NCBI RefSeq assembly: GCF_017348835.2
Contig: NZ_CP071375.1
Source of the DNA: Escherichia coli
GTDB taxonomy: Bacteria; Pseudomonadota; Gammaproteobacteria; Enterobacterales; Enterobacteriaceae
DNA length: 64,000 bases
Strand: one strand, 5' to 3'
Below, in pieces: positions 45,001 through 48,000 of this stretch. Made by a program: the position numbers. How positions within the stretch are numbered: the first letter of the stretch is position 1; every line of letters begins with the position of its first letter.

Positions 45001-48000
45001 CTCCTGCGGCGTTTCACTACTTTGTAGCCGGATATTGCTCGCCTGCTCGGGCAACATCAGCGCGTTATCGCCACCACCGAGCATGATATTTTTCTGCTGT
45101 TCAACGGGCCAGCTGTTATCCACAAAAGACAGTTTTGTGCTAATGCTGTCCTGCACTTGCCCATTTTGTTGCAGTTCTGCACTTAACAAGCCAGATTGCT
45201 GAATATTCTGCGTCAGCGAAATATAATTCGCCCCTTTGTGCAGCGTCAGCGTCTGGCGCATCTCAGCGCCTGCAAATTTAGTCACCAGCGCCACCGGTTC
45301 GTTATCCTGCTGACTGAAGATAAACAGTCCTGCCGCCGGTTTGTCGCCCACGCGATACACCGTTGGCATACTCCACTTCATGTAGAGATTTTTTTCCGAA
45401 CGCAGATAAGCACGCCCCTGCCCGACCAGCCCGTCGCCGTTCATCCCACGCGCGGTGATACGCCAGCGGGTTAACGAATCAGGCATCAGGAACGTGAAAT
45501 ACGCTTTGCCTTGTTTATCGGTTGTGAGTGACGGCATCCATGCCGCGGTATCCACCTCTTCACGCCGTGGACGTTCAAGCATTTTTACTCGCCGCTCGCT
45601 GCGGTTAGTTGCGCCAGGCGCAACCGGCTCGTTGGAGAGCGCCTGGTCGTAGCTGATAAACGACAGACTGGAGCTGGTACGCACATTGTTACGCCCCAGC
45701 GGATAGAAAAATTTGCCGATATTCGGCGCGATTTCTGGTTGCAGCGCGTAGATCATTTCATCGACCACGCCTACCGTTAGCTGCGCAGAAACAGGTTTAC
45801 CTTTCAGCGACGAGGTTAATTCGACATTGACCAGTTCACCAGGCTGGTAATGGGTTTTGTCCGTTTTCACCCGGATATCCAGCTGGGGAACGGCAACTTT
45901 GATCCCGGCATTCTGAAAACTGTACTGACCGTTACGGGTATACAGCACCGAAAAAGTGATGTTAGGCGCAAAGGAATTGCTCACTGGAACCCGGGCTTCA
46001 TACTGGGTATCGTTTAAACGTTGTAGCGTTAGCCAGTTTGCCGGATGCGAAAGCAGCGACTGCTGTTCCACGCGATCGCGTTCCAGCGTCAATAATGCTT
46101 CATCAATTGGCTCCGGAAAGGTAATCAGCATCTTCGCGGTTTCGCCAGGCTGGTACAGCGTTTTATCTGCCACGATATCTACCGTACCAGTATGCGACAT
46201 GCTGCCCTTACCGCTGACGGCATGACTTAACCCAGCGAGAATTAAGCCGTCTTTATCGCGTAATGTCAGATTGTAGTTGCCAGGTTTAGCGAAATTGACG
46301 GTAAAGGATTTGCCGCCTGACGGTAGCTCTCCGCTATGGCTCGTGCGGTCTTCGAGACGCAACCATTCATACGTAACAGGAACCTGTTTTGAAGATTCCA
46401 GCGCGGCATAACGGAACACAACCGACTCGCCGCTATTACTGTATTGTGCGGCGGTACTTAAAGAGTAATGCGCCAGGCCGCGTTCAATGAGGATCTCTTT
46501 GGTGGTGGTGACGCGATACGCCGCGCCGTCACTGGCGGAGACGGTTAACAAATAGCGGCTTGGTTTATCGGCGGCGGGGAGATTTAACGCCACATGACCG
46601 CTATCGTCGGACACCGTTTCACTGCCTTCCAGCGACACGGGGAAACGTCCGGCATAACGCAAATCGTTACCGACCATTGATAATTGCTGAGCGCGCAAAC
46701 TTAACTGCACGCGGGCATCTTTTACCGGCTCACCATCCGGGTAGAGCAGTTGCAGTTTGCCGCTGACCGCTTCGCCAGTTTTGAACTCTTTTTTGTCGAG
46801 AGCTAAACCAATCTCGAAATGTGGCTTGATATAGTTGGCTACGCGAAAACTACTGCTATAGACCTGATTGCGGTAAGCAAGACGTAACTCATAACCTCCG
46901 GCAATGGCATTTTCTGGCAGGCGGAAACTTCCCTGCCCGCCATTGCGCGCATCCAGCGTGACATCGACGGTTTGCAACAGACTGCCGTTGGCGTCCAGCA
47001 CCGAAAGCTTCGCCGGGGCGCTGACGATGGGGGATGAATGCAACGGATCGTGGAACTCGCGGCCCATCACTTTAACATCGACACGATCGCCTGCGCGATA
47101 TAGCGGGCGATCGGTAAAAATATACAAGCGGGTGTTGTAGATTTCGCTTTCGTAGAAGAAGTTCTCGGAGACAAAAACGCCGCCTTCGGCATCCTTACCC
47201 AGAATGTATGAACGTTCTGGCGATATATGTTGTAACTGCAAGGTACCGCTGTCATCGGTCACACCGCGGGTCATCACGCCAAGACCGTCAGTCCACAAGA
47301 TCTCTGAGCCTGGCTTCGCTTCACCCTATTTTTTACCCGCGGTCCACACCAGAAGCTCTTTGCCTGACACTTTGCTAAGCGCCACGGTATCGGAAACAAA
47401 CACCACCGTCGTCGCCCGATACCCACCAACCATCGCCTCGACGAGGTACAGTCCCGGCTCTTGTTGGCCGAGAGGAATATAAATGTTACCCGGCTGCGGC
47501 GAGATGAAATTGCTGGATGCGCCTTCCAGTTTTACCCCTTGCTGCGGCTCGACCGGTTTAGCCTGCCATAGTGGATAACGGAACTGTTCCACCAGGGGAT
47601 ATTTTTTCAGCGGGGAAAACTGGTTGTTCTGTACATAACGGGAAGGTTTAATAATGGCATTGCCGAGATGTAATTCGGGTAATGCCTGAGTCACATTCTG
47701 CCGTGACTGAGAAGAGAAAGTACGCTGCATCACGCGGCGAGATTTGCCGTACCAGTTATCCCACAGCCAGGTCAGCGTATTGTTCAGCCCGTCGCCCAGA
47801 TATTGCGGTTGCACCACAATGCGATGCAGGTTTTTCTGCTGGCGCAAAAATGCCATCGGGTCAGGAATACGATACAGGCGAACGTCCACACCGCCGTACT
47901 CTTCCATCTGATAGCGCCGATAATCACGCCCCGGCGCTTCCAGTCGCACTTTCGCCTCTTCACTGCTGCTAAAACTGCTGTCAGCAAGCAAAAAGAATGT

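Follow-up and report, generated by a model that had tools for sequence, protein, structure and literature searches.

A premature amber codon, and not a homopolymer frameshift, very probably inactivates yfaS in a pig-associated lineage of Escherichia coli

How was yfaS, the gene of an alpha-2-macroglobulin homologue, interrupted in the Escherichia coli strain analysed here? In the 64,000-nt stretch of contig NZ_CP071375.1 that was studied (the window), the minus strand offers two open reading frames at this locus, one encoding 282 aa (47326..48174) and one encoding 1247 aa (43555..47298). The 282-aa ORF ends with a minus-strand TAG at 47326-47328, which is adjoined by a run of six T on the plus strand (six A on the minus strand) at 47329-47334; the minus strand reads GGT AAA AAA TAG GGT. 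The preliminary description took this arrangement for a frameshift caused by slippage in the homopolymer, and considered it to be either an old lesion as in K-12 or a reversible tract. Its identification of the gene is borne out by the PGAP label, the K-12 annotation and the Pfam domains, and the ORF lengths, the stop position and the T6/A6 run were all given correctly. The gene is also disrupted exactly at the stop that had been indicated, but its division into two frames was mistaken.

Both ORFs lie in a single frame, with a gap of 27 nt between them ((47325-47298) mod 3 = 0). Translation of 43555..48174 on the minus strand yields 1540 continuous codons, with codon 283 as the sole internal stop and a normal stop at the end; codon 283, counted from the ATG at 48174, corresponds to codon 278 when numbering begins at the K-12-style start (MDTQRF). 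The 1247-aa ORF continues this yfaS frame, its start having been taken at the first start-like codon (TTG) past the TAG. The lesion is a substitution and not a frameshift: position 47328 is an A on the plus strand, compared to a G in other E. coli, converting CAG (Gln278) to TAG by a C>T change on the coding strand. In a 151-nt alignment of the window with PE164, O157:H7 and a K-12-type genome there is no gap near the site and the only relevant difference is the T versus C, and the full-gene alignment with K-12 MG1655 (4605 nt) contains zero gaps. Counting the length of the homopolymer in orthologues, a check that had been proposed along with the frameshift, gave A6 everywhere (window, PE164, F2_81, O157 and K-12) and no indel, which rules out slippage as the cause.

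What is observed is thus a single substitution in a colinear, indel-free frame, at a codon that is a sense codon in the orthologues, as expected for a nonsense pseudogene; a frameshift pseudogene is contradicted by the common frame of the two ORFs and by a tract as long as that of alleles without the stop. On the basis of these alignments, we consider it very likely that yfaS is a pseudogene here as a result of one nonsense substitution, CAG to TAG at codon 278 (Q278*). That the gene is a pseudogene is already known, as the same allele is marked in public records: in PE164 and F2_81, the genes that are 100% identical to it carry the PGAP label "alpha-2-macroglobulin family protein, internal stop", not "frameshifted". 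The adjacency of the run and the stop is without significance, because A/T runs of six or more are common in the window (87 in total, 5 of them inside yfaS). The context of the mutated site, ACAGGG, is not a Dcm site, and Q278* therefore looks like an ordinary transition.

The start of yfaS has been placed differently by PGAP (GTG 48069), by the K-12 annotation (ATG 48159) and by the longest ORF (ATG 48174). The PGAP start removes the hydrophobic leader of the protein, and the ATG at 48174 falls within the att core of an adjacent prophage. The features of the region are collected in Table 1.

Table 1. Coordinates of yfaS, its premature stop, the neighbouring operon genes and the adjacent prophage in the window.
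Feature	Position	Strand	Remarks
yfaS pseudogene, type II bacterial alpha-2-macroglobulin (assigned from sequence)	43555..48159	-	1534 codons from the K-12-style ATG 48159; single internal stop
Premature amber TAG, codon 278 of 1534	47326..47328	-	Alignment with O157, K-12, PE164 and F2_81
A6 run, two Lys codons (AAA AAA) just before the stop	47329..47334	-	Incidental; length unchanged in alleles without the stop
Residual N-terminal product, 277 aa	47329..48159	-	Hydrophobic leader with Cys25, then no recognisable domain
Post-stop remainder of yfaS, same frame	43555..47325	-	All recognisable A2M domains; no further stops or indels
yfaQ, 549 aa, intact	41905..43554	-	Begins directly after the yfaS stop
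yfaP, 258 aa, intact	41124..41900	-	Last operon gene
yfaT 3' remnant, 90 bp	48093..48182	-	Overlaps the yfaS start region; PGAP: "DUF1175 family protein, incomplete, missing N-terminus"
Hybrid yfaT, 208 aa (native, 207 aa)	61950..62576	-	Last ~25 residues from the prophage end
Degraded lambdoid prophage, ~13.8 kb	48183..62027		Inserted in the yfaT/yfaS overlap
nleA, T3SS effector gene, 413 aa	48784..50025	+	
nleG, T3SS effector gene	50719..51366	-	
Integrase	60885..61955	+	

The position of the stop predicts a severe effect on the protein. With codon 278 turned from CAG into an amber codon by the C>T change on the coding (minus) strand, translation would end after 277 residues, ahead of the macroglobulin, bait-region and MG10 domains, and no functional periplasmic alpha-2-macroglobulin would be made; the A6 run is no more than a conserved pair of Lys codons with no role in the mutation. 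The Pfam domains above cut-off are MG2 (7.5e-27), A2M_BRD (the bait region, 7e-18), A2M (3e-12) and bMG10 (3.9e-6), and the 1256 residues past the stop contain all recognisable A2M domains. No match in Pfam or NCBIfam was obtained for the 277-aa N-terminal fragment, the NCBIfam search of yfaS gave nothing useful, and a search of solved structures yielded just marginal similarity to complement C5, in its MG2 region. A protein cut off at residue 277 should consequently have lost alpha-2-macroglobulin function. Possible restart codons follow the stop at 10 (TTG), 17 (GTG) and 18 codons (ATG), none of them with a convincing Shine-Dalgarno sequence, and a product restarted internally would be without the N-terminal export leader and presumably could not reach the periplasm. 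Polarity of Q278* on yfaQ and yfaP is possible.

Thioester-less type II bacterial alpha-2-macroglobulins, such as MagD of P. aeruginosa, reside in the periplasm, are encoded by multi-gene operons and capture proteases non-covalently (PMC5764988, PMC3735191). The 1534-codon translation of yfaS contains no C.EQ/CXEQ thioester motif, its sole Cys residues being 25 and 1189, and because of this absence, together with the domain set and the operon layout, YfaS appears to belong to the type II class. Like MagD (magABCDEF operon; PMC3735191, PMC5764988), YfaS combines MG2, bait-region, A2M and bMG10 domains without CXEQ, and its gene is part of a multi-gene operon of DUF proteins and not located beside pbpC. 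In contrast to the six genes in P. aeruginosa, the E. coli operon has five, and whereas MagD is reported to be Cys-free, the YfaS leader has Cys25. Moreover, yfaS in the window is truncated at codon 278 and its operon is split by a prophage. The N-terminus of yfaS shows a hydrophobic, putative export leader, and an IAAC lipobox-like motif (Cys25) is found in it. In K-12 and F2_81 the order of the operon is yfaA (DUF2138), yfaT (DUF1175), yfaS, yfaQ (DUF2300) and yfaP (DUF2135). The yfaA gene is intact as far as the window reaches, with a frame open to position 64000; an apparent truncation (ORF 62573..63826) was dismissed as an artefact of the window edge.

The frequency of the allele was surveyed in 5426 complete E. 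coli genomes with a 55-mer centred on the mutated base, a design in which every 28-nt megablast seed word includes that base. The TAG allele was present in two genomes, PE164 (pig, China) and F2_81 (pig, Australia), and the CAG allele in at least 4924, of which 3347 were identical across all 55 nt including the A6 run. The yfaS genes of PE164 and F2_81 are 100% identical to that of the window over 4605 nt and the next-best alleles are 99.2% identical; an intact yfaS CDS of 4515 nt was found in each of eight more genomes, chosen to span the identity range. This distribution suggests that Q278* is restricted to a small pig-associated E. coli lineage and, because it occurs in just two of the 5426 genomes, that it is recent and not old; with the nearest stop-free alleles at only 99.2% identity, the mutation can not be dated precisely. 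A literature search on "yfaS", a name that mostly returned the Yale Food Addiction Scale, found no paper on the TAG allele.

The window is nearly identical to PE164, including an atoS-atoC deletion that is unique to PE164, and truly independent confirmation of the TAG therefore comes from F2_81 alone. This deletion, at approximately 36477-36481, comprises 1259 bp relative to F2_81 and K-12 and takes the 3' end of atoS and the 5' part of atoC; its junction has a 5 bp overlap, lies within the ORFs 35052..36521 and 36445..37008 (both on the plus strand) and occurs in one of the 5426 complete genomes (PE164). Because both regulator genes lose sequence to it, the acetoacetate two-component regulator AtoS/AtoC is probably inactive in the strain. 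The window is without the IS3-family insertion that PE164 carries at 51640, and its interval 52678-53495 is without the IS903B copy present near 53495 in F2_81. No complete genome among those compared was colinear with the entire window, which thus represents either a third close relative within the pig-associated lineage or another assembly of it.

The statement in the preliminary description that K-12 carries yfaS as a pseudogene is correct, as MG1655 annotates b4500 in this way. The lesion, however, is not the one in the window. K-12 has TGA in place of TGG at codon 1368 and retains CAG at codon 278, whereas the window has TGG at codon 1368, so that a shared lesion is ruled out and the two pseudogenes arose independently. 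Both have yfaS at an identical place in the operon (yfaA-yfaT-yfaS-yfaQ-yfaP, with gyrA and the ato operon as neighbours), and in both a single in-frame stop, without an indel, inactivates the gene. In contrast to the TAG at codon 278, which keeps 18% of the protein, the TGA at codon 1368 of 1534 keeps approximately 89%, and the W1368* allele is found in 364 of the 5426 genomes (all among the matches listed being K-12-type laboratory strains), compared to two for the allele of the window.

Further losses of yfaS were seen in other strains. In O157:H7, a T>G change fuses GGGGTGGGG into a poly-G tract, and three complete assemblies differ in its length: G9 with an intact CDS (Z1768), G10 with a frameshift (ECP17-46) and G8 with a frameshift (AR-0428). 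Either the tract truly varies or the assemblies contain homopolymer errors. The corresponding site of the window, 44952-44960 on the minus strand, is still the interrupted GGGGTGGGG, the stable form. The gene is also frameshifted in O103 strain RM8385, bringing the independent yfaS lesions seen to at least four (Q278*, W1368*, the O157:H7 poly-G length changes and the RM8385 frameshift). In ATCC 8739, yfaS is intact and yfaT (4694-5317 of the locus examined) carries a pseudogene annotation on account of an internal stop, which is another independent lesion in the same operon.

Several explanations other than a plain nonsense mutation were weighed. As in homopolymer contingency loci, a homopolymer adjoins the point where the reading frame ends, and the O157:H7 assemblies, with their G8, G9 or G10 tract at gene nt ~3200, show homopolymer frameshifts elsewhere in yfaS. 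Unlike in the O157:H7 poly-G, though, the length of the A6 run is unchanged in the window and no change of frame takes place: alleles without the stop have the same A6, there is no indel in 4605 nt relative to K-12, and the ORFs on either side share their frame. Altered tract lengths would, furthermore, leave the frame of the downstream part and run into stops within 3-20 codons (after 2 codons in the -1 frame and after 17 in the +1 frame), and since both frames close within 20 codons, slippage in the tract cannot restore yfaS. A +1/-1 slip in the A6/T6 tract, possibly reversible (phase-variable), is therefore left with a negligible probability, and programmed recoding via the A-run was dismissed, given that neither the +1 nor the -1 frame is open and that the stop occurs in only two of the 5426 genomes. 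It is also extremely unlikely that the TAG is an error of sequencing or assembly and that CAG, with an intact yfaS, is what the genome really contains. The window is so close to PE164 that it could derive from related data; nevertheless, the substitution is common to separately assembled genomes, in the 100%-identical 4605-nt genes of PE164 (China) and F2_81 (Australia), and it is unlike the homopolymer indels that are typical of long-read errors. Finally, the amber codon might be partly read through or suppressed and some full-length YfaS be made. The ancestral codon specifies Gln, so that a Gln-inserting amber suppressor (e.g. of the glnV/supE type) would restore the wild-type protein, and the frame past the TAG is free of other lesions. 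An undamaged downstream frame is, however, equally expected of a young pseudogene, and the TAG is not conserved in the genomes as a recoding site would be. No suppressor tRNA gene was found in the adjacent prophage or the whole window, where the sole tRNA gene is that of tRNA-Pro(GGG). We consider suppression highly unlikely, and a conditionally functional yfaS with the amber suppressed back to Gln carries even less weight than the selected, recurrent loss of the gene that is discussed below. A nonsense pseudogene is thus the reading that we favour.

The prophage next to yfaS may bear on the question of why such a mutation could become fixed. Homology to K-12 and O157 is lost at 48182 and returns at 62028; two copies of an 11-bp core, CTTCCATGTCA, occupy 48168-48178 and 62028-62038. 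Located 9 nt ahead of the yfaS ATG (48159), the insertion physically parts yfaS-yfaQ-yfaP from yfaA-yfaT. In addition to the genes in Table 1, the prophage contains a transposase fragment, tail-fibre and lysis remnants, ninG and antiterminator genes. The native C-terminus of YfaT (DUF1175) is not restored by the phage, the replacing sequence being unrelated. A prophage junction at the same site is present in 179 of the 5426 genomes (O26, O103, O111, O121 and others; 90-92% identity), and the exact junction of the window only in the two pig strains, PE164 and F2_81. In CFSAN029787, the prophage at this site has ipaH in place of nleA.

It is conceivable that the prophage had already cut off yfaS-yfaQ-yfaP from the operon promoter and altered YfaT, and that the nonsense mutation was fixed under the resulting relaxed selection. 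This would fit with the prophage core located just upstream of the yfaS start, the 13.8 kb that part yfaS from yfaT and yfaA, the replaced C-terminus of YfaT, and the fact that the two genomes with the exact junction are also the only two with the TAG allele. Four more genomes in which a prophage occupies this site were inspected. One of them (O103 RM8385) has a frameshifted yfaS; the other three keep the gene intact, and K-12 and some O157 strains lost yfaS without a prophage there. Relaxed selection following the insertion is therefore plausible but unproven, the genomes being much too few for a statistical association, and we give it a minority chance of being the cause. The repeated lesions could also indicate that yfaS is a recurrent target of inactivation, with selection possibly favouring its loss in certain niches or once a prophage has taken the yfaT site, as opposed to neutral decay; we regard this as improbable.

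For annotation, the nonsense substitution implies that the locus is one pseudogene marked "internal stop", rather than two genes. With a homopolymer that is irrelevant to the lesion, there is no phase-variable switch at yfaS here, and Q278* most likely represents one more independent loss of yfaS, alongside the losses seen in K-12 and in certain O157 and O103 strains. The pig-associated lineage would, as a consequence, be without its type II periplasmic alpha-2-macroglobulin.
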